Part shown: one piece after another, positions 5,859-58,186 of the stretch | Layout of the letters: each line of letters begins with the position of its first letter | How positions within the stretch are numbered: position 1 is the first letter of the stretch | Origin: an uncultured virus (IMG/VR IMGVR_UViG_3300037067_016944) | Lineage: Duplodnaviria > Heunggongvirae > Uroviricota > Caudoviricetes | Direction: 5' to 3' (one strand) | Virus record (IMG/VR): IMGVR_UViG_3300037067_016944 | Length of the DNA stretch: 64,000 nt | Program-made: the position numbers and the translations under genes | Notes under the pieces: model-generated | The model's database searches: none | What the model saw: the letters and a program-made list of their open reading frames with translations, nothing else | What the model was told of the DNA's origin: nothing

Positions 5859-6914
5859 TTAAAGTGTGATACCGTATCTAGACTCACAGATTTGTCTATA
5901 CAGAGCCGCAATCTTTTTGCGGTCCGGTGAATCTCGCAGCGTTGACGCTTTACAGAGAGCATCCAATCGGGCGTCCAATCCGTCTGCGATAGCTTCGATG
6001 TCCTCATACTTCCATTCGCCTCTCAAAATCCCTCGCAATTCTTCTGCATCGGGACGTCTTACTAAGACCTTCTGATCGCGTAGGATCTCTTCGGCCATAC
6101 GAGATAGCCGAATTAGATGCATGCTATGCTTCACATCATAACCATACTTACGCTCTAGCTCTTTACGAGCCGGATTGCGCTCCTTGTCCCATTTGCGATA
6201 TGAATTCCAGACTTGCAGTGCTGTGGCATATCGCCTTTCTTTGGCGACTTGATCTTTCGAGCCATCAGCAGCCCACTCATCGGGAAGTGACAAGATAGCG
6301 TTCTGGTGTTCCTTCGGAATTTTGCTGTTTTCAGGCAACCCAAATTCCTGCCGAGTCGGTTGGTGGGTTGGCGGGTTAATCAGATAACCGCGATGTGTCT
6401 TTATACGCTTGAGTTGCTGAATGGCGTAACCGGCGAACGTCCAGCGAGCCTTCTTTGATAGGAACAGATCACGATGAGATCGTATCAATTCCCATTCGGG
6501 TGTACTGATATCAATCAGATGATCGACATATAGGAACTCGATGATGTTCGGGTTGCAATCAGCAGCCAGCTTCAAGAACTTACGTAACTCTTGTAACTCT
6601 GAGTCTTCGCCCGGTTTGTGGACCGTTTCAACAGACAATGACAGATCACCACGGTCGGTAGCTAGAGCAGCTTCAATCGAGTTTCTAGCTGCATGTGGAT
6701 CGGTGGCATCAATGGCGTCCAATGCACTATGCAATGCTTGTTTGATGGTACCAGAACCAACGAAACTCGTCTGGAAAATGTCGAAGGCGGAAGATAGCGG
6801 CGCAATGAAAACGCCACGCCTGTCAATATCGCTATCGGGTCGATTCGTTCCATATTGATGGGAACCGGATACGAATTGGAAGATACAATGCTTAATAGCT
6901 TCGTCGTAGTGCAT
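5859..6914 (-). CDS. DNA polymerase-beta superfamily nucleotidyltransferase (RlaP-like)
   Basis: GSHQYG..SDID.RG, NPNIIE, YDVKH..HLIRL, LRGILRGEW motifs. Confidence 0.88.
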   Translation of the reverse strand: MHYDEAIKHCIFQFVSGSHQYGTNRPDSDIDRRGVFIAPLSSAFDIFQTSFVGSGTIKQALHSALDAIDATDPHAARNSIEAALATDRGDLSLSVETVHKPGEDSELQELRKFLKLAADCNPNIIEFLYVDHLIDISTPEWELIRSHRDLFLSKKARWTFAGYAIQQLKRIKTHRGYLINPPTHQPTRQEFGLPENSKIPKEHQNAILSLPDEWAADGSKDQVAKERRYATALQVWNSYRKWDKERNPARKELERKYGYDVKHSMHLIRLSRMAEEILRDQKVLVRRPDAEELRGILRGEWKYEDIEAIADGLDARLDALCKASTLRDSPDRKKIAALYRQICESRYGITL

Positions 6915-21513: not shown

Positions 21514-22017
21514 TTAGTTCTGATACTTCTCGATGAAGCGATCGATAATGCCGATCAGCCTCTTAGGCACAAACTTGGATTCGATGATGCATTCTCGGAA
21601 CTCTGTAAAGATCTCGAAGAAATCGACATTTACCATAATCTCCCCAAGTTCTGTGGGTGAGATAGGCTCGCCGCCCTCGCCACCGGGCATGTTCTCTTCC
21701 GGTGGGCCTATTAACTTGCGGGCGGAAATAATAGCGGGCAGAATCCAAAAACCGCTACTGGTCGTCGTCCGCGCTTGGCCGGAGAAGAAATCGTCCGGAA
21801 TCTCGAAGCGTTTCTTGGTTTCGATCGGTAAGTCGACGTGATCGTCGGGTTCGAGTTGAATCGCTGTCCCCATCCGGTCGAAATCGACTTCACCCTTTAC
21901 GATGACGAAAGCGATGACAATTTCAACGAACCCTTTTTCCGTACCGAGTAGCATCGGATACAAGTGAATGAAAGGATCGTATTCGTCAGCATTTTCTGTA
22001 CTCATGGTTTTCTCCAC
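21514..22017 (-). CDS. hypothetical protein (paralog of 20786..21451)
   Basis: Shared motifs; start possibly 22005. Confidence 0.7.
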   Translation of the reverse strand: MEKTMSTENADEYDPFIHLYPMLLGTEKGFVEIVIAFVIVKGEVDFDRMGTAIQLEPDDHVDLPIETKKRFEIPDDFFSGQARTTTSSGFWILPAIISARKLIGPPEENMPGGEGGEPISPTELGEIMVNVDFFEIFTEFRECIIESKFVPKRLIGIIDRFIEKYQN

Positions 22018-22706
22018 TTTCGAACCGCACTGTCGGACACGCCGTATTTTCTACCAACACCACAATAGCCAAGTTCCGCGATTTCCTTTAAAAGCACATC
22101 TATTGTCGGCCTATTCGACGCTTTTCGTGGTGGTGGAAATTTTATGATATAACACTTGCGGCACAACCCGGTCTTGCTACGTTTTTTTAGCCGGCAACCA
22201 CAAGATGAGCATTTTATGAGATTTCTCGGTCTTACAATGCCATCTATGATTTCTCGTGGTTCTTTTCTTTGCGTACTGACTGCGTATGTTGGAGTTTGAG
22301 TATGACAATTAGGACACAGAATGCGGAGATTCTCTAGCTTGCAGTTCCTGTTATTTCCGTCCTCGTGGTCTAGGTGGAGTATTAGAGGTTTTTCATTCCA
22401 AATTGGCCCTTGACCGCATATCTCACAAACCTCTTTTTTGAGTCCCGCTTTGAGTAGTCTTTTCTTTAGTTTGGATGTTGAGATTATTGGACCATCTTGC
22501 ACCAGATAATCAACAAGCGGTCTTCTCTTGCCGATTATCTCTGATGGTGGTCGTTTCTTAAAAGTAATCCCTGCAAGCCTCTTCTTGTAGAGTTTGTGAT
22601 TTCCACCCATTGGCACAAGGCCAAGTTTTATCATAACATCGCATACCGAGTAGGATTCTCGTGCGATTTCGAACAACTCGTCGTCTGGTATCATTCGAAC
22701 CTCCAC
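22002..22706 (-). CDS. HNH homing endonuclease with C-terminal HTH
   Basis: CEICG...LHLDHEDGN..N...NLRILCPNCH; GRKYGVSDSAVRKW; adjacent to tRNA. Confidence 0.9.
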   Translation of the reverse strand: MEVRMIPDDELFEIARESYSVCDVMIKLGLVPMGGNHKLYKKRLAGITFKKRPPSEIIGKRRPLVDYLVQDGPIISTSKLKKRLLKAGLKKEVCEICGQGPIWNEKPLILHLDHEDGNNRNCKLENLRILCPNCHTQTPTYAVSTQRKEPREIIDGIVRPRNLIKCSSCGCRLKKRSKTGLCRKCYIIKFPPPRKASNRPTIDVLLKEIAELGYCGVGRKYGVSDSAVRKWRKP

Positions 22707-22730
22707 TACTATTTACGTAATGAAGGTTAG

Positions 22731-22819
22731 TAGCCGTGGCCGGATTCGAACCGGCAGCGTTTACCACTTGGGTATCAGTTCTTAAGACTAATGCGTTTCG
22801 CCAATTTCGCCACACGGCC
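22731..22819 (-). tRNA. tRNA-Leu(UAA)
   Basis: Cloverleaf GGCCGTG/CACGGCT, anticodon loop CT-TAA-GA, long variable arm, GGTTCGAATCC; CCA not encoded. Confidence 0.93.
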
Positions 22820-25790: not shown

Positions 25791-25994
25791 ATGAAGTGCT
25801 TCGACAAACTCCTTCAGGATTTTGTTAGTGCGGCACGATCCGGTCAGGTTATAGAACCTACGACAGAGACGCAACGACGAGTCATACATGTTCTAGCCAA
25901 AAAGGCTGCCGACCAAGGGATCGAGCTAGAGGGGTTCGAGATTAGGGAGCTATCGCCTACAAACGGCTATAGCCGACAATTCGTTCTCACCTAG
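25791..25994 (+). CDS. small hypothetical protein
   Basis: AAGGT SD; N-terminus MKCFDKLLQ. Confidence 0.5.
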   Translation: MKCFDKLLQDFVSAARSGQVIEPTTETQRRVIHVLAKKAADQGIELEGFEIRELSPTNGYSRQFVLT

Positions 25995-26139
25995 CCTTGC
26001 TCGTCTCCAGTACACGGACACTACTACCGTTGTACATCTCGCGGGCTAGCCGTGCAGCAGCACCCGCATCATTGGCATCGACGCGAACTTGGGTGTTGCG
26101 TCCTTCGACAATCAGTTTCACGACATAAGTGGTCATCAT
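25987..26139 (-). CDS. small hypothetical protein (50 aa, not in ORF track)
   Basis: GGAG SD; MMTTYVVKLIVEGRNTQVRVDA... Confidence 0.55.
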   Translation of the reverse strand: MMTTYVVKLIVEGRNTQVRVDANDAGAAARLAREMYNGSSVRVLETSKAR

Positions 26140-26176
26140 AGAACTCCAAAAAGGTTTCCGTTCTGGAAATAAAACG

Positions 26177-26267
26177 AAGGCGGGCCGGGACTCACTAAGT
26201 GCTCACCCGAATCTTCCAGACCTTAGTAGTATCAGTCCGGTGTTTTTGGCCATTAAACTACCCGCCC
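26177..26267 (-). ncRNA. tRNA-like RNA with enlarged anticodon and T loops
   Basis: Acceptor GGGCGGG/CCCGCCT, D arm GTTT/AAAC, stems CCGGA/TCTGG and TCGGG/CCCGG; 15- and 16-nt loops; begins at predicted TSS of promoter 26273. Confidence 0.75.
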
Positions 26268-26480
26268 ACCTAGTTATAGCGTGAGGCAGGCATCCTCTTA
26301 ATCAAGCTCGACACTATCAACATACCAGTTGCCAGACCAGGTGCCTATTTCTTCGGCATAGAGACTCGCAGCTAGCTTTCTGGCCACATACCAACTGATA
26401 GCGACAATCTCAGGATATTCCTTGAGTGTCGCCTTGGTAGTTCTGTCGATGACAAGACACAAAAATCGCGTATTCACAAT

Positions 26481-29023: not shown

Positions 29024-29431
29024 GTCAGCTCCTGCTGTGGTTGCGATGCTTGGTTATAGCACAACATATGTCATTGGTTAATCTCGATCGGCTGCGTTGA
29101 TATGCACCCGCCTTTTAAATACGTCGCCAGGAATTAATTCCCTGTGGCTGTCGTGCTATAACGAAACAGGAGGAACCACAAAATGGTCCAGCTTGACGAA
29201 AATCAACTCGCCGAAATCATCATCCCTCTATGCCATTGGTGCGGAGAACCACTAGACGGCGCTGGGGAGAACGGGATGCACGGCCCCTGCGCTAATGAGT
29301 GTAGTGAGGCAACCAGAGAAGCAGCCAGAGAAGCGGATGCCTATGATGAATAGTTCTGGGAGTATCTAAACTCCGGGTAGCTATTAACGCCACGACGGTC
29401 TCGTGCTATAATGAGACAGAGGAGAACACAC

Positions 29432-39797: not shown

Positions 39798-39874
39798 GGC
39801 TTTTTATCCTGTGTGTTCGGAGCGGACCTCCCGCCCTCGTGCTTAGTTATAGCACGAACAAAGGGAATTATTAA

Positions 39875-39905
39875 CCGAGGGCCGGTTTACTGGACCGGCC
39901 CTCGG
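39875..39905 (-). terminator. hairpin/terminator before promoter cassette
   Basis: CCGAGGGCCGGT / ACCGGCCCTCGG inverted repeat. Confidence 0.6.
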
Positions 39906-40189: not shown

Positions 40190-40273
40190 TTTGATTCCCG
40201 TGTGTGTGTTCGGGGCGGGCCTCCCGCCCTCATGCTTAGTTATAGCACGAGAAGCGGGGATTATTAACCGAGA

Positions 40274-41377: not shown

Positions 41378-41490
41378 TCTCCTGTGTGTCGGAGCGGTAC
41401 TCCCGCCCTCGTACTTGGTTATAGCACGAGGGCGGGAACTATTAACCGGAAGGCCGGTCCACTTCGGTGGACCGGCCCCGCCCCGCGAAG

Positions 41491-48258: not shown

Positions 48259-49410
48259 TTACTTCTTACGATTCTCCCAGTTCTTTGGTGACAACGCTAT
48301 TTCTGGCGGGTATGATTGCAGTCTGCCAAACAGACTTGGAGGTGTGATCCCAAGCCTGTTTGCCCACTGAGTGAGTGTCATCGTTTCGCCGTCGCAAGTG
48401 AGCGAATTTTTGCGTGTGTGTAGCTTTACGGCCTGCTCAATGGTGTGATCCCGAAGATATTGGTAAAGAGTGTTCTCTTTGCACCGTAGCTTGGTTGCCC
48501 ATTTCCTTATCGATAGCGTTTCGCCATCATGCGTATATTCCTTGTCCAGCCAATCAGGGAGGCCAATCCAGAATCTTTTCATATCTCTGCTTTTACCAAC
48601 CCAGGTTGGATTCGCCATAGCTATCTGGCGATGAAACTCCTCGTCTTTTTTAATCAATCGAACCAACCGTCTGGCTAATTTAGGCTGCTCTTTGATTGAT
48701 GGCCGCTTGACTCCGCTCGCAACCATTTCGAGGAACATCTTCTTTTCTTTCTCGTCTTCATGCCGCACAATCTCAACCTTGGTGTCGCGGAACCAGTCGG
48801 GACGAATCAGTTTCAACTTGGCGGTGAACTCGGCGTCGTAGGCGTGTTGGGAAGGAGAAGTGAATCGCTCGATGGCTTCAGCGAATCTCATCTCTTCATC
48901 GTTCTTGGCAGACTTCCTGTGTATTCGCTTGCCACCGGCTAAGGCGTATGCCAATATCTCTTCCTTGAGCTTGATAACTCGTTCGTCTCTGTCGGGGTCG
49001 AACCATTCCGGGCGAAGGGGCTGGAATATCTCGGGATGTCGACCAATCTGGTTATCTATCGCCATACCATGCTTGCCAGATCTCCACCCCGGTCGCGGTG
49101 CCCCGCTTTTAGCAAGTTTCAAGGCTTCCTGAAAAGCCTTTGCAGATCTCTCACGCCTATCGGGGTCAAACCAATCGGAAGGGACGGCACGTACTCTAAT
49201 ATCAAAGGAGAAGTCGTATGCATCGCCTCCCTTATCACAAGCTGCGTCAAGAGTCCTAGCCAAACTACTCTCGTCAAGATCTTTACTATACCTGTTTGGA
49301 CGCGGCTGACCAGAGCGAACCATCTCCAGCAATCTGGCTTTTCTGGCTCCAATTGCTATGTGTATAGCTTCGCGGGTCATGCCAGCAAACCAAAGCTCTC
49401 TTCGTGCCAT
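48259..49410 (-). CDS. repeat protein with C-terminal DNA-binding modules
   Basis: Four ~60-aa units ending in a P.WF-like motif; two T.DGET....WA..L modules. Confidence 0.75.
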   Translation of the reverse strand: MARRELWFAGMTREAIHIAIGARKARLLEMVRSGQPRPNRYSKDLDESSLARTLDAACDKGGDAYDFSFDIRVRAVPSDWFDPDRRERSAKAFQEALKLAKSGAPRPGWRSGKHGMAIDNQIGRHPEIFQPLRPEWFDPDRDERVIKLKEEILAYALAGGKRIHRKSAKNDEEMRFAEAIERFTSPSQHAYDAEFTAKLKLIRPDWFRDTKVEIVRHEDEKEKKMFLEMVASGVKRPSIKEQPKLARRLVRLIKKDEEFHRQIAMANPTWVGKSRDMKRFWIGLPDWLDKEYTHDGETLSIRKWATKLRCKENTLYQYLRDHTIEQAVKLHTRKNSLTCDGETMTLTQWANRLGITPPSLFGRLQSYPPEIALSPKNWENRKK

Positions 49411-53077: not shown

Positions 53078-53725
53078 ATGAAATTAAACCTACTAGCTGA
53101 AGCGTGGAGGCGGCCAAGAGTCGCAAAGCCGACAGAATATGTCAATCTATTGAGATTATATGAAAAATACTGTGCTGGTGATAAAGACGCACTAAGGAAA
53201 TTCGTCGATACTGCAGACGGCATATTGTTGTTCTATCTCGACAACAAATTTCCGTATTATTTGACTATTGAGGACTTAGAAGATGCTGCCAATCGTGCTA
53301 TAGCGTATGTAGCAACACGCAAAATGCCTGGAAAGTTCAAATCGGCTCGTCATCTGTTGAACTATCTCGAAGCTGCGGCTAGAACCGGTGCTATAAACGC
53401 CATACAAAAATCGCAGCGATTTGATAAGGGAAATGCCGGATATGCATCTTCAAAACCAGAAGAAATACCGAAAACACCAGAACCCCTTGTGCCTCTAGAT
53501 AAATTGCTTGATGCGTACAGAAAATATTACGCCGAACAATCGAAGATAAGGCAAATGCCTCCGATGGCAAGATCAGTAAAGATATTGCAGAGACGTGCAA
53601 ACGGTCAGAGTCTTGAGGAGATTGGCAACGATCTTGGGATTACAAGAGAGCGGGTTAGACAGATTGAAGCAAGAGGCATAAGAAACCTGCAAGTCTTTGC
53701 TCAACATTATACTTCTGATAACTAA
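53078..53725 (+). CDS. sigma-70-like protein (region 4)
   Basis: SLEEIG..LGITRERVRQIEARGI region 4.2; degenerate region 2. Confidence 0.8.
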   Translation: MKLNLLAEAWRRPRVAKPTEYVNLLRLYEKYCAGDKDALRKFVDTADGILLFYLDNKFPYYLTIEDLEDAANRAIAYVATRKMPGKFKSARHLLNYLEAAARTGAINAIQKSQRFDKGNAGYASSKPEEIPKTPEPLVPLDKLLDAYRKYYAEQSKIRQMPPMARSVKILQRRANGQSLEEIGNDLGITRERVRQIEARGIRNLQVFAQHYTSDN

Positions 53726-55821: not shown

Positions 55822-55907
55822 ACCTTCGGCCTCTGAGACATGTCCTTGACAGGGAGGGCAAATACGTATTTAATTAATTATTGGTCAGTTTTGTGCTATA
55901 AGCAAAT

Positions 55908-56060
55908 GTGCTGTGTGGCGCAGAGGTGGGCTACTTCGCCTACGGAGCGGGTGGTCGCGGGTTCGAATCCCGTCGTTGGAGCAACACTGGAAACAGTCGC
56001 GCTCGACGTAGCTCAGTTGGTAGAGCACCTACGTACCTACTTCGCTTATTCCCACAGCAC
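55908..56060 (+). ncRNA. Y RNA (YrlA-like) 1, permuted tRNA mimic with ACG anticodon-like loop
   Basis: Terminal stem GTGCTGTG/CACAGCAC; T arm GGTTCGAATCC precedes D arm TAGCTCAGTTGGTAGAGC; upstream of Ro60; starts at promoter 55891. Confidence 0.85.
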
Positions 56061-56072
56061 TTTTTGACAATA

Positions 56073-56120
56073 AAGAGCACATGAACTCGCGGTAATATGA
56101 CTGCGACGGATTGTGCTCTT
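56073..56120 (+). other. long hairpin between Y RNAs
   Basis: AAGAGCACA/TGTGCTCTT and TCGCGGT/ACTGCGA stems. Confidence 0.6.
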
Positions 56121-56126
56121 ACGATT

Positions 56127-56210
56127 TGCTGCATGGCGTAGAAACGGGTTACTTCGACTTGAAATCGATTGTCCGAAAGGACATTGCTCGTTTCGCTTGT
56201 TCCTGCAGCA
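56127..56210 (+). ncRNA. short Y RNA 2 with UGA anticodon-like loop
   Basis: Same TGCTG..TGGCGTAGA / TTCGCT..TTCC..CAGCA core as neighbours; no D or T arm. Confidence 0.8.
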
Positions 56211-56221
56211 TTTTTTGAAAC

Positions 56222-56620
56222 ATGCCATTTCGCGATCCGGAAAAACGACGGACTTACCAAAGGAAATATGGAGCGCAGCACTACCGAGCAAATAAGGAGT
56301 ATTACGCCGAGAAGCGTGCTGTCAGAGCGACAAAGATCGTTAAACAACTCCGCCTTTTGAAGTCTACGCTGCATTGTGCTTTGTGTCCGGAGAGTGACGA
56401 AGCAGCTGATTTTCATCATTTCGATCCATCTAAAAAAGAATTAGAGATATATCGTGTCATCTGTCTTGGCACTGGGTGGAAGAAAGTGGTAGCGGAAATT
56501 GAGAAATGCGTATGTCTGTGTGCTAACTGCCACAGAAAGGTACACAAATACAAGTCATGGGCGAAAAAGATCAACAGTAACATGCTGATAATTGTCACGG
56601 CAGAGCTACGTGATATTTAA
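56222..56620 (+). CDS. HNH endonuclease
   Basis: CALC...DFHH.DP..K...EIEKC..LCANCHRKVH. Confidence 0.85.
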   Translation: MPFRDPEKRRTYQRKYGAQHYRANKEYYAEKRAVRATKIVKQLRLLKSTLHCALCPESDEAADFHHFDPSKKELEIYRVICLGTGWKKVVAEIEKCVCLCANCHRKVHKYKSWAKKINSNMLIIVTAELRDI

Positions 56621-56631
56621 GCCCTACGAAA

Positions 56632-56766
56632 TTGCTGCGTGGCGTAGAGGTGGGATACTTCGAATGCTAATCGAGAGGCATTGGTTCGAGTCCAATCATC
56701 AGAGCAATCTGGTGTAGCTCAGTTGGCAGAGCGCTAACGTACCTGCTTCGCTCATTCCCGCAGCAA
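56632..56766 (+). ncRNA. Y RNA (YrlA-like) 3, permuted tRNA mimic with GCU anticodon-like loop
   Basis: TTGCTGCG/CGCAGCAA stem; anticodon arm, T arm, 7-bp acceptor closed by GCAA, D arm; 22 nt upstream of Ro60 ATG. Confidence 0.88.
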
Positions 56767-56788
56767 CTTTCAATCTACGAGGTTCACT

Positions 56789-58186
56789 ATGGCAGCCATC
56801 AACAAGAAGACGAAGAAGTCACACGTTTATGCCGACGAAAAGTTGGCTGGCGGGTATGGCCCAAGGGCTGCCAAGCAGAACGCAGAGGCAACTTTACGCC
56901 GTCTTGTCATGACGTGTCTCCTGTGGGAGGATAACGCCTATTGCGACGGAAAAACTGTCGTAGATCAGATCAAGGCGTTGGTGCCACAGGTGCCGAACGT
57001 TGGCAAGATTGCTGTTGAGGCTCGCTATGAGCAGAAGCTTCGACACGTGCCGTTGATGCTTGTCCGTGAAATGACCCGTCATCACATGCCGGATGTGGCC
57101 GAGACGTTGGCGAAAGTGTGCAACCGTCCGGATGAGATGACGGAATTCGTCGCCATGTATTGGGCGGACAACGCTAAGAAGAAGTCTCTTGCGGCTGCCG
57201 TGAAGAAGGGTTTGGCGAAAGCGTTTGGTAAGTTCGACGAATACCAACTTGCCAAGTACAACCAAGTTGATCAGGAAGTGAAGCTGCGAGATGTCTTGTT
57301 CTTATGTCACGCAAAGCCGACCGATGATCGTCAGAATCTCTACAAGCGACTCATTGCTAACGAACTCAAGACTCCCGACACATGGGAAGTCGGTATGTCG
57401 GCGGCTAAGAGCGTTGCCGAGAAGCGAGCGGTTTGGGAGCGATTGATCGAGGACCGAAAGCTTCCGGCATTCGCTTTCCTTAAAAACCTGCGAAACATGC
57501 AGGAAGTAAGCGTCTCACGTGAGTCGATGGCGAAGGCGTTTGCGAACTGCAAAGTGGACATGCTGTTGCCAATCGATTTCTTGAAGGCTCGTAAGTATGC
57601 TCCGGATTGGACCCGAGAGATCGAGGAATTGATGTATCGGTGTGCTCAGACGTGGCCGAGACTTTCGGGCTGGACGACTTTGGCCGTCGACGTTTCGGGT
57701 TCAATGGGAAGTACCGTGTCCGATAAATCCGAATTTTCTCGGATGGATGCAGCCGCTTCTATGGCGGTTTTGGCGGCGGAGTGCTGCGACCATGTTTCCA
57801 TCTATGCTACGGCTGGAAACGATGGTACGCGAAAGCACGCTACGAAGAAGATAGAAGCACTTCGTGGTTTCGCCCTAGCCGACAAAATCTTGGAAGCGAA
57901 GCATGCTCTCGGTGGTGGAGGCATCTTCACCAGACAAGTCTGCGATTTCATCCGCAGCAAAGAAGAAGTACCGGACCGGCTGCTCATTTTCAGCGATTCG
58001 CAAGACTGCGATGCACCTGGATCGGGCCTACCAAAGCCGCACGGCAAGAGCAACTACATCATTGACGTCTCTTCACATTCGCACGGCGTCAATTACCAAG
58101 GCGTTTGGACTGCCGAGATTGCTGGCTGGTCCGAGCGTTTCTTGAAGTTCGTTGCGATGATGGAACAAGCTGGTAGCTTGAACTAG
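56789..58186 (+). CDS. rsr: Ro60/TROVE domain RNA-binding protein with vWA domain
   Basis: FDEYQLAKY, KLRDVLFLCHAKP, TPDTWE, LKNLRN, DVSGSM MIDAS, SDSQ. Confidence 0.93.
   Translation: MAAINKKTKKSHVYADEKLAGGYGPRAAKQNAEATLRRLVMTCLLWEDNAYCDGKTVVDQIKALVPQVPNVGKIAVEARYEQKLRHVPLMLVREMTRHHMPDVAETLAKVCNRPDEMTEFVAMYWADNAKKKSLAAAVKKGLAKAFGKFDEYQLAKYNQVDQEVKLRDVLFLCHAKPTDDRQNLYKRLIANELKTPDTWEVGMSAAKSVAEKRAVWERLIEDRKLPAFAFLKNLRNMQEVSVSRESMAKAFANCKVDMLLPIDFLKARKYAPDWTREIEELMYRCAQTWPRLSGWTTLAVDVSGSMGSTVSDKSEFSRMDAAASMAVLAAECCDHVSIYATAGNDGTRKHATKKIEALRGFALADKILEAKHALGGGGIFTRQVCDFIRSKEEVPDRLLIFSDSQDCDAPGSGLPKPHGKSNYIIDVSSHSHGVNYQGVWTAEIAGWSERFLKFVAMMEQAGSLN

Follow-up and report, generated by a model that had tools for sequence, protein, structure and literature searches.

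A conserved tRNA-derived RNA with enlarged anticodon and T loops in a clade of jumbo phages

Some phages encode small stable RNAs that resemble tRNAs, and to our knowledge these tRNA-like stable RNAs remain unexplained. Phage T4 produces RNAs C and D. Comparable RNAs of phage T5, RNA1 (144 nt) and RNA2 (125 nt), are annotated as 'tRNA-like stable RNA with unknown functions' (AY543070). Phages also carry working tRNAs, and according to three articles these counter host defences that target tRNA by replacing the cleaved host tRNAs (PMC10264068, PMC11555353, PMC11464382). In PMC7824862, RlaP, Ro60/TROVE proteins with YrlA-like RNAs, and RNA ligase are described as means by which jumbo phages answer the anticodon nucleases of their hosts; the same article deals with the YrlA/Y RNAs (RF02553), the partners of Ro60, which are tRNA mimics that do not decode. 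Outside phages, PMC3399842 describes Bacillus cereus tRNA-Other as a pseudo-tRNA that has no role in translation and affects cell physiology, and two further articles describe archaeal and red-algal tRNAs with several short introns, which also occur in the T arm (PMC4090602, PMC9602550). Full-text searches of the literature, subscription journals excepted, yielded neither a phage tRNA-like RNA in which both the anticodon and the T loop are enlarged nor a tRNA decoy against anticodon nucleases.

The window, the whole 64,000-nt stretch of DNA analyzed here, belongs to an uncultured virus (IMG/VR record IMGVR_UViG_3300037067_016944). Its minus strand contains a tRNA-shaped element, hereafter the pseudo-tRNA, whose features are listed in Table 1. 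The acceptor stem has 7 bp and opens with a G1.U72 wobble. The D arm consists of a 4-bp stem and a 9-nt loop containing GG, the anticodon arm of a 5-bp stem and its 15-nt loop, the variable region of 5 nt, and the T arm of a 5-bp stem (first pair U.G) and its 16-nt loop. A sequence-only reading of the same DNA had given the transcribed sequence and the four intact stems, and both proved exact on re-reading; the two loop lengths that it reported are confirmed in the window and are constant in all six variants described below. The range that it assigned, 26177..26284, contains the element, but the RNA proper runs from 26267 to 26178 and the remainder includes the GCTATAAC box of the promoter.

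The anticodon loop varies at two positions: position 35 is A in five variants and G in one, and the second base of the insert is U or A. The outer two bases on each side of this loop may pair and extend the stem to 7 bp, leaving a loop of 11 nt. The T loop has a U at its start and GAGU at its end, with 11 nt in place of the two bases 55-56, a net insertion of 9 nt at the elbow compared with 8 nt in the anticodon loop. The T-loop insert possibly includes a CAC-YUA-GUG mini-hairpin, and the sole variable base of the T loop (U or C) falls in the apical triloop of this predicted hairpin. The stem-extending bases and the CAC/GUG hairpin are both invariant across the six variants and so give no covariation signal. 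Readings of the T-loop insert as a K-turn, a loop E or a T-loop motif were tried by eye and none fitted. A likeness of ACUAAG to the sequence that follows the phage -10 box was dropped because it amounts to a shared 6-mer. As candidate antisense sequences, the reverse complements of both loops matched only themselves in the window, apart from one match with three mismatches at 48361, which is within chance.

Table 1. Positions of the pseudo-tRNA and associated features in the window
Feature	Position	Strand	Basis
-35-like element GATTAAG (consensus GGTTAAT)	26297..26303	minus	TTAA at the consensus offset from the -10 box
-10 box GCTATAAC of phage promoter	26273..26280	minus	motif enrichment; invariance upstream of six variants
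tRNA-derived cloverleaf RNA (pseudo-tRNA)	26178..26267	minus	90 nt; sequence read, covariance model R1, 21 pairs, RNAalifold
Anticodon loop, 15 nt	26221..26235	minus	CUGAUA plus 8-nt insert; 13/15 positions invariant in six variants
T loop, 16 nt	26190..26205	minus	15/16 positions invariant in six variants
A/U-rich hairpin UUUCC-5 nt-GGAAA, then CCUUUUU and GGAG ribosome-binding site	26155..26169	minus	5/6 carriers (not L012); absent from non-carriers
Conserved 50-aa ORF directly downstream	25987..26139	minus	tblastn matches in 15 related loci, 39-100% identity
YrlA-like (RF02553) match, sub-threshold	55950-56029		beside the TROVE gene
YrlA-like (RF02553) match, sub-threshold	56648-56760		beside the TROVE gene

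The helicase adjoining the pseudo-tRNA is 87% identical to that of G001, a viral contig of 388,105 bp that is 99% complete by the estimate of its source collection. A covariance model, R1, was built from the pseudo-tRNA copies of the window and G001. R1 detected no paralogues in the window and none in the 388-kb relative, indicating one copy per genome.

Among the described systems, T5 RNA1 and RNA2 share with the pseudo-tRNA that they are phage-encoded, apparently non-decoding small RNAs framed as a tRNA and closed by an acceptor-type helix. The T5 RNAs lie inside a tRNA cluster, whereas the pseudo-tRNA stands alone at a promoter and measures only 90 nt. Minimum-energy folds of RNA1 and RNA2 place a hairpin with a 7-nt loop at the T-arm site and the extra length in the middle of the molecule, whereas in the pseudo-tRNA the T loop itself is rebuilt. 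R1 did not match either T5 RNA at E <= 10. By sequence and predicted fold, we class the pseudo-tRNA with the phage tRNA-like stable RNAs, in a family different from RNA1 and RNA2. It resembles the anti-defence phage tRNAs in being a tRNA-type gene with a non-standard anticodon loop in a genome that carries RNA-repair genes. Those are working tRNAs with 7-nt loops, whereas the pseudo-tRNA has loops of 15 and 16 nt and departs from decoding tRNAs in the ways given below. The words 'decoy', 'pseudo', 'insertion' and 'enlarged' do not occur in PMC10264068.

A second comparison is with the YrlA RNAs, which are likewise tRNA mimics without a decoding role, and the window has a Ro60/TROVE gene with two sub-threshold YrlA-like matches beside it (Table 1). 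These matches carry the loop motifs of the YrlA model (UUCGA; AGCUCAGUUGG) in the stretches aligned with the T and D arms, whereas the T loop of the pseudo-tRNA lacks them. The pseudo-tRNA also lacks a Ro-binding stem, and 30 kb separates it from the TROVE gene. Its identification as a YrlA RNA was rejected because RF02553 gave no match at 26178-26267, either at E <= 10 in a local search or at E <= 5 in a search of the window. Bacillus tRNA-Other is similar in being a tRNA-shaped RNA retained for a non-decoding role, but it is cellular and unrelated in sequence, and we know of no enlarged loops in it. Archaeal and red-algal intron-containing tRNAs have extra sequence at the same two places, the anticodon loop (37/38) and the T loop. 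Their introns are cut by a splicing endonuclease at a bulge-helix-bulge, whereas the inserts of the pseudo-tRNA are shorter, its T loop is not restorable and G001 has neither the endonuclease nor RtcB. Unlike that of those tRNAs, the setting is of bacterial type, with an extended -10 promoter, GGAG ribosome-binding sites and a LigA-type ligase.

Homologues were collected through the adjoining helicase. Alignment of 39 of 120 listed helicase relatives was used for a metagenome scan, and the loci of the best 80 of 133 relatives were searched with R1. At these loci R1 gave seven strong matches (101.7-116.6 bits): the window's own, two with the G001 sequence, and others, together six distinct variants. 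The window's own copy scores 116.6 bits and the five other variants 101.7-114.6 bits. R1 also gave three weaker matches (20.5-42.6 bits), with lengths of 72-74 nt; two receive ARAGORN calls, one as tRNA-Asp and one as tRNA-Ile(UAU), and the third is at locus L080. With filters off, R1 found only tRNA-Leu genes (<=16.2 bits) in 14 further relatives with upstream flank. When viral contigs were scanned with DNA patterns, three patterns matched only the G001 contig and one matched nothing. The loop pattern had no match in 185,579 species genomes, and a pattern of the 5' half, used to look for a cellular source of the tRNA, had one uninformative match in cellular genomes, a fragment in an actinobacterial MAG without an ARAGORN call. 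No match to the 1.7-kb region around the pseudo-tRNA was present in a phage DNA collection. DNA contigs of four sequencing runs contained only variants that were already known, and no joints. The lineage is a clade of roughly 390-kb jumbo phages, and the variants come from a few environmental metagenomes.

In a helicase tree all carriers fall within one clade of ten rows (support 100/100), of which six have the RNA and four do not. It is absent from all six rows outside this clade, and the branching inside the clade is poorly resolved. The four non-carriers differ at the locus. L018 has a 14-nt piece of the acceptor and D arm, 13/14 identical and in register after the promoter, together with the T-loop octamer. 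L017 has kept the octamer alone, L011 has a different small ORF and L021 has unrelated sequence. The octamer, CACYTAGT, was considered as a recurring motif and rejected, as its counts show no enrichment over expectation in the window (4 against 3.9) or in G001 (10 against 24.8). Because it is not common, the pieces in L017 and L018 are read as remnants of erosion. The simplest history would be one gain at the base of the clade, selected retention in six lineages and loss in four. Since four clade members do without it, the RNA is dispensable. Such an accessory pattern of gain and loss would fit a gene involved in conflict.

The six carriers were compared to assess conservation. Mean pairwise identity of the pseudo-tRNA is 0.895 (range 0.835-0.944). 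Over the same six carriers, mean identity at third codon positions is 0.58 in the helicase, 0.63 in the 50-aa ORF and 0.78 in a 405-aa ORF, and it is 0.615 in the 60 nt upstream of the pseudo-tRNA and 0.577 in the downstream spacer. The excess over third codon positions and flanks points to purifying selection and not to decay, which bears out the earlier view that this is no decayed pseudogene. The 21 cloverleaf pairs are formed in 125 of 126 cells across the six variants, the sole exception being an A.G at 13:22 in L009. Double compensatory changes occur at two pairs, 13:22 (U-A, C-G, U.G) and 31:39 (A-U, G.U, G-C), and seven further pairs vary on one side yet stay paired (G-C/G.U or U-A/U.G). 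Shuffle controls for covariation were weak, with 32/500 and, in a second analysis, 42/500 shuffles reaching the score, and covariation evidence from six closely related variants is thin. A control with slid partners was clear (95.8% paired versus 27-54%), and RNAalifold returns the cloverleaf without structure input. The cloverleaf is above chance, because compensatory changes maintain it across six variants. On the plus strand each of its 15 wobble cells would become an A.C mismatch; the folded strand is accordingly the minus one, which the promoter would transcribe. The loops are the best-conserved parts (Table 1; the D loop is invariant at 8 of 9 positions). Taken as comparative evidence, these results show the pseudo-tRNA to be a selected RNA with a conserved predicted fold.

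Ancestry in a tRNA is apparent from both model searches and individual bases. R1, although built from the pseudo-tRNA alone, finds real tRNAs, namely the tRNA-Asp at L052 (42.6 bits) and the tRNA-Ile(UAU) at L054 (35.4 bits), and among the annotated tRNAs of phage T5 it matches five (E < 0.01). All six variants (alignment A5) have U8, A14, R15, G18-G19, A21, U33, R37, Y48, G53, U54, A58 and C61, which we take to be bases of the tRNA core. The four-stem cloverleaf with conserved core nucleotides is that of canonical tRNA (RF00005). Compared with the T loop of the tRNA at L052, that of the pseudo-tRNA retains the initial U and the final tetranucleotide GAGU. These comparisons show, at the level of sequence, that the pseudo-tRNA descends from a tRNA.

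The region ahead of the pseudo-tRNA matches a promoter motif that recurs in this genome. The window contains 40 copies of the octamer TGCTATAA, against an expectation of 1.15; 0 of 100 shuffles contained that many copies. From 45 GCTATAA sites in the window the consensus is GGTTAAT, about 17 nt, then TCGTGCTATAAC, usually with a GGAGG ribosome-binding site within about 12 nt. GATTAAG and GCTATAAC upstream of the pseudo-tRNA are spaced as in this consensus, and the -35-like element overlaps the stop codon of an upstream 59-aa ORF. GCTATAA is invariant upstream of all six variants, and G1 follows it by 6 nt in each. A generic sigma-70 scan reported no promoter at the locus; the promoter is a phage-specific motif, since that scan misses it. 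The claim that the 5' end coincides with the start site of the element's own promoter is upheld as regards the phage motif and the 6-nt distance from the -10 box to G1. Transcription would start at or next to G1, as we infer from that spacing, and the pseudo-tRNA is presumably transcribed from a standard phage promoter.

Directly downstream lies the 50-aa ORF, which belongs to no Pfam or PHROG family. Its sequence is conserved as in a protein-coding gene, with identity of 0.92 at codon positions 1 and 2 versus 0.63 at position 3, and it is probably on the same transcription unit as the pseudo-tRNA. The A/U-rich hairpin that precedes it received no terminator call in a consensus scan. In the non-carriers L017 and L021 the promoter stands directly ahead of the ORF, with no pseudo-tRNA between. 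Because non-carriers have the same promoter and the same ORF, the pseudo-tRNA, and in five of six carriers the A/U-rich hairpin, sits between a pre-existing promoter and its gene.

This arrangement raises the possibility that the cloverleaf acts in cis, as the 5' leader of an mRNA that encodes the 50-aa ORF and possibly genes beyond it, either protecting the end or serving as a processing signal of the RNase P/RNase Z type. In all six carriers the cloverleaf follows the promoter and precedes the ribosome-binding site of the ORF, with no consensus terminator before the ORF, and the 6-nt distance from the -10 box would lock the first transcribed bases into the acceptor helix. That the same promoter serves the same ORF in non-carriers also agrees with a leader. 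However, a stabilizer or cleavage signal has no need of near-invariant loops of 15 and 16 nt, phage tRNA genes often lie within operons from which they are simply cut out, and the ORF is served without the pseudo-tRNA in L017, L021 and L011. We regard a leader function, the main rival to the reading favoured below, as rather unlikely.

The sequence-only reading had proposed that the two inserts pair with each other, in an intramolecular pseudoknot or in intermolecular kissing, and that such pairing is what the RNA is for. The complementarity that it noted in the window is real, comprising 7 bp with six Watson-Crick pairs and one U.G, but it is not above chance. The loops of the window form a predicted duplex of -7.6 kcal/mol, an energy equalled or bettered by 9.5% of 2000 shuffled loop pairs. 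The loops of L010 give -6.7 kcal/mol (14% of 2000 shuffled pairs as good). The loops of the other four variants give only -4.2 to -5.1 kcal/mol, which is at the mean of shuffled loops (36-51% of 2000 as good). Homologues, in which compensation had been expected, gave none: the seven-pair helix is formed in 36 of 42 cells in six variants, and both of its variable pairs break. The bases at 46:71 form an A-U pair in two variants but an A.C mismatch in the other four, and those at 41:76 form a U.G wobble in four variants and an A.G mismatch in two. In favour of pairing, the window and L010 share a contiguous 6-bp Watson-Crick match, ACUAAG/CUUAGU, an invariant 4-bp core, ACUA/UAGU, remains between the loops and is joined by G47-C70 in all six variants, and the four variants with C allow six pairs in a shifted register with one bulged A. 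RNAalifold favours local pairs instead, the 7-bp anticodon stem and the 3-bp CAC/GUG hairpin of the T loop, which compete for the same bases as the inter-loop helix. An L-shaped tRNA holds its anticodon loop at a long distance from the elbow. The conserved tRNA core implies this L shape, and the loops would then be too distant for intramolecular pairing. The case for pairing between the loops is weakened, the invariant core notwithstanding, and we consider it improbable.

Several observations bear on whether the RNA could decode. The anticodon loop has 15 nt in all six variants in place of the 7 nt of a working tRNA. The T loop has 16 nt in all six and begins U-G-A, whereas a standard one has 7 nt and begins U54-U55-C56. 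No 7-nt combination of a T-loop prefix and suffix begins U-U-C, and a standard T loop is thus out of reach of any single excision. As the sequence-only reading expected, tRNA finders rate the element poorly. ARAGORN does not call it in the window, where it reports two other tRNA-type genes, and at default settings it calls none of the six variants, whether introns are allowed or not. At lowered thresholds the amino acid that it assigns differs from variant to variant (Phe, Leu, Thr, Glu and others), and these calls are noise. Rfam has no match at the locus at gathering score, at E <= 10 in the local 901 bases or at E <= 5 in the whole window, and its scans place no intron family there. Five variants have GAU as their 'anticodon' and the sixth has GGU. 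The discriminator base is U, U, U, C, U and A across the variants, and CCA is not encoded. In the 99%-complete relative G001 no tRNA-splicing endonuclease (PF01974), RtcB or CCA-adding enzyme was found. G001 does encode five ordinary tRNAs (Leu-UAA, Ser-UGA, Arg-UCU, Thr-UGU and Met-CAU), all at Rfam gathering score; their loops are normal, and loop enlargement is therefore a peculiarity of the pseudo-tRNA gene. These features suggest that the pseudo-tRNA most likely does not decode.

The contrary reading is that the element is the precursor of a working tRNA-Ile(GAU), whose inserts are removed or tolerated and which is charged and used in translation. If the 8 nt that follow position 37 were cut out, the anticodon loop would have the standard 7 nt (C-U-GAU-A-G). 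The GAU is kept in most variants, and G001 lacks a tRNA-Ile(GAU) of its own but has an RNA ligase. The T loop speaks against this reading, as do the missing enzymes and the failure of ARAGORN with introns allowed. The anticodon and the discriminator base are identity elements for isoleucine charging, and here the one changes to GGU and the other varies. At 8-9 nt the inserts fall short of the length of group I or bulge-helix-bulge introns. They also show stronger conservation than the stems, whereas spacers should show weaker. A precursor is very unlikely. Least credible of all is a dying tRNA gene whose conservation reflects recent common ancestry: there are only six close variants, and loss is possible, as erosion in L018 and L017 and absence from L011 and L021 indicate, but over the same divergence flanks (0.58-0.62) and third positions (0.58-0.78) have changed far more than the RNA, in which substitutions keep the pairing.

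We tentatively favour a lineage-specific, tRNA-derived mimic RNA that does not decode, borne on a promoter ahead of the conserved 50-aa ORF. The acceptor, D, anticodon and T stems are kept together with the core nucleotides, and conserved inserts have rebuilt both working ends of a decoding tRNA, the anticodon loop and the elbow. The tRNA body may serve as a recognition handle for a tRNA-binding protein, and the two enlarged, conserved loops would confer a different specificity. The likeliest partner, its identity being speculative, would be a tRNA-binding protein in the contest between phage and host over tRNA. Candidates are a host defence that cleaves tRNA and an enzyme of tRNA processing or repair. 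One variant differs at position 35, and an RNA that imitates the anticodon of a single tRNA might not withstand such a change.

The genomic context of this putative mimic is jumbo-phage DNA, to judge from the recurrent promoter octamer, gene content and relatives. Most ORFs of the window have no family assignment. Those that do are of phage type: an SF2 helicase, an NAD-dependent DNA ligase, HNH endonucleases, a nucleotidyltransferase of the RlaP type, a TROVE/Ro60 protein, domains of the NADAR and SLOG families and a protein with sigma-70 region 4. TROVE is also encoded by G001, together with an Rnl2-type RNA ligase. A distance of 20-30 kb separates the pseudo-tRNA from the RlaP and TROVE genes, which are not adjacent to it. 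Any link to tRNA-targeting defence is speculative and is drawn from this context, not from linkage.

A narrower form of the mimic reading, which we think rather unlikely as it stands, is a decoy. The tRNA body would lure a host nuclease that targets tRNA, or another factor, while the rebuilt poles would bar the RNA from the ribosome, and the attacker would be titrated or blocked. If this were true, the phage would practise counter-defence by RNA mimicry beside a repair kit of RlaP, Ro60/Y-RNA and RNA ligase.

The pseudo-tRNA offers a compact case, selected and of only 90 nt, in which both functional poles of a tRNA are rebuilt and the body kept, making it a clean test object. Even if it binds neither a defence nuclease nor a processing enzyme, it would still represent an uncatalogued RNA family of jumbo phages. 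If it does bind one of these, phages would use tRNA mimics besides replacement tRNAs.

Most genes in the window are preceded by a phage-specific two-part promoter, GGTTAAT followed after about 17 nt by TCGTGCTATAAC. There are 45 such sites, for example at 29155, 31635, 44788 and 45078. The leaders 3' of the promoter are very short, and GGAGG follows the -10 box by about 12 nt. The window also encodes a sigma-70 region 4 protein, which might read this promoter. The G+C content rises from about 0.47 to 0.52-0.555 between approximately 18000 and 46000 and falls again past 46 kb, although the promoter motif is common to the whole window. The shift could reflect genome modules differing in origin or expression class.

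On the minus strand at 39.8-41.9 kb, near-identical leaders with a GC-rich GGGCGGG...CCCGCCC hairpin lie 3' of several promoters. Matches to these leaders by R1, a covariance model made from the pseudo-tRNA copies of the window and of the closely related viral contig G001, cover the acceptor stem only. The hairpin leaders may be a repeated 5'-leader element. In L109, an actinobacterial locus matched by the pseudo-tRNA 5'-half pattern, a second tRNA-like sequence has its 3' end immediately before the matched tRNA-like fragment. ARAGORN made no call on L109, and the fragment may be an integration scar.

Features of the window and of related loci
Feature	Position	Strand	Evidence
RlaP-family nucleotidyltransferase (RNA-repair pathway)	5859-6914	-	
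tRNA-Leu(UAA), then HNH endonuclease gene (phrog_10822) directly 3'	22002-22819	-	tRNA 55.3 bits
Hairpin-bearing leaders	39853-39901, 40213-40246, 41425-41483, ~41901	-	R1 matches
Sigma-70 region 4 protein	53078-53725		
YrlA (Y RNA-like) match 1	55950-56029	+	34.8 bits
YrlA match 2	56648-56760	+	26.8 bits
TROVE/Ro60-like gene	56789-58186	+	Pfam TROVE, 58.8 bits
Rnl2-type RNA ligase	G001:C1:194736-195230		PF09414, 47.6 bits
tRNA 5'-half-like fragment	L109 151-175 (genome_contigs, actinobacterial MAG)		identical to degenerate 5'-half pattern over 25 nt

The tRNA-Leu(UAA) is 90 nt long in the window, compared with 84-86 nt in nine related variants, and is retained in all close relatives, including those without the pseudo-tRNA. 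RtcB, a CCA-adding enzyme and a splicing endonuclease were not found in G001 (99% complete by estimate).

The TROVE/Ro60-like gene, present in G001 too, is preceded by both YrlA matches, which score below the gathering score of 69. A phage promoter at 55894 marks the start of the first. ARAGORN calls a 'tRNA-Arg(acg)' at 55909-55982, overlapping part of this match; the Rfam tRNA model does not support the call. The whole block (55894-58186, plus strand) probably encodes a Ro60 of the phage together with the Y RNAs that belong to it.
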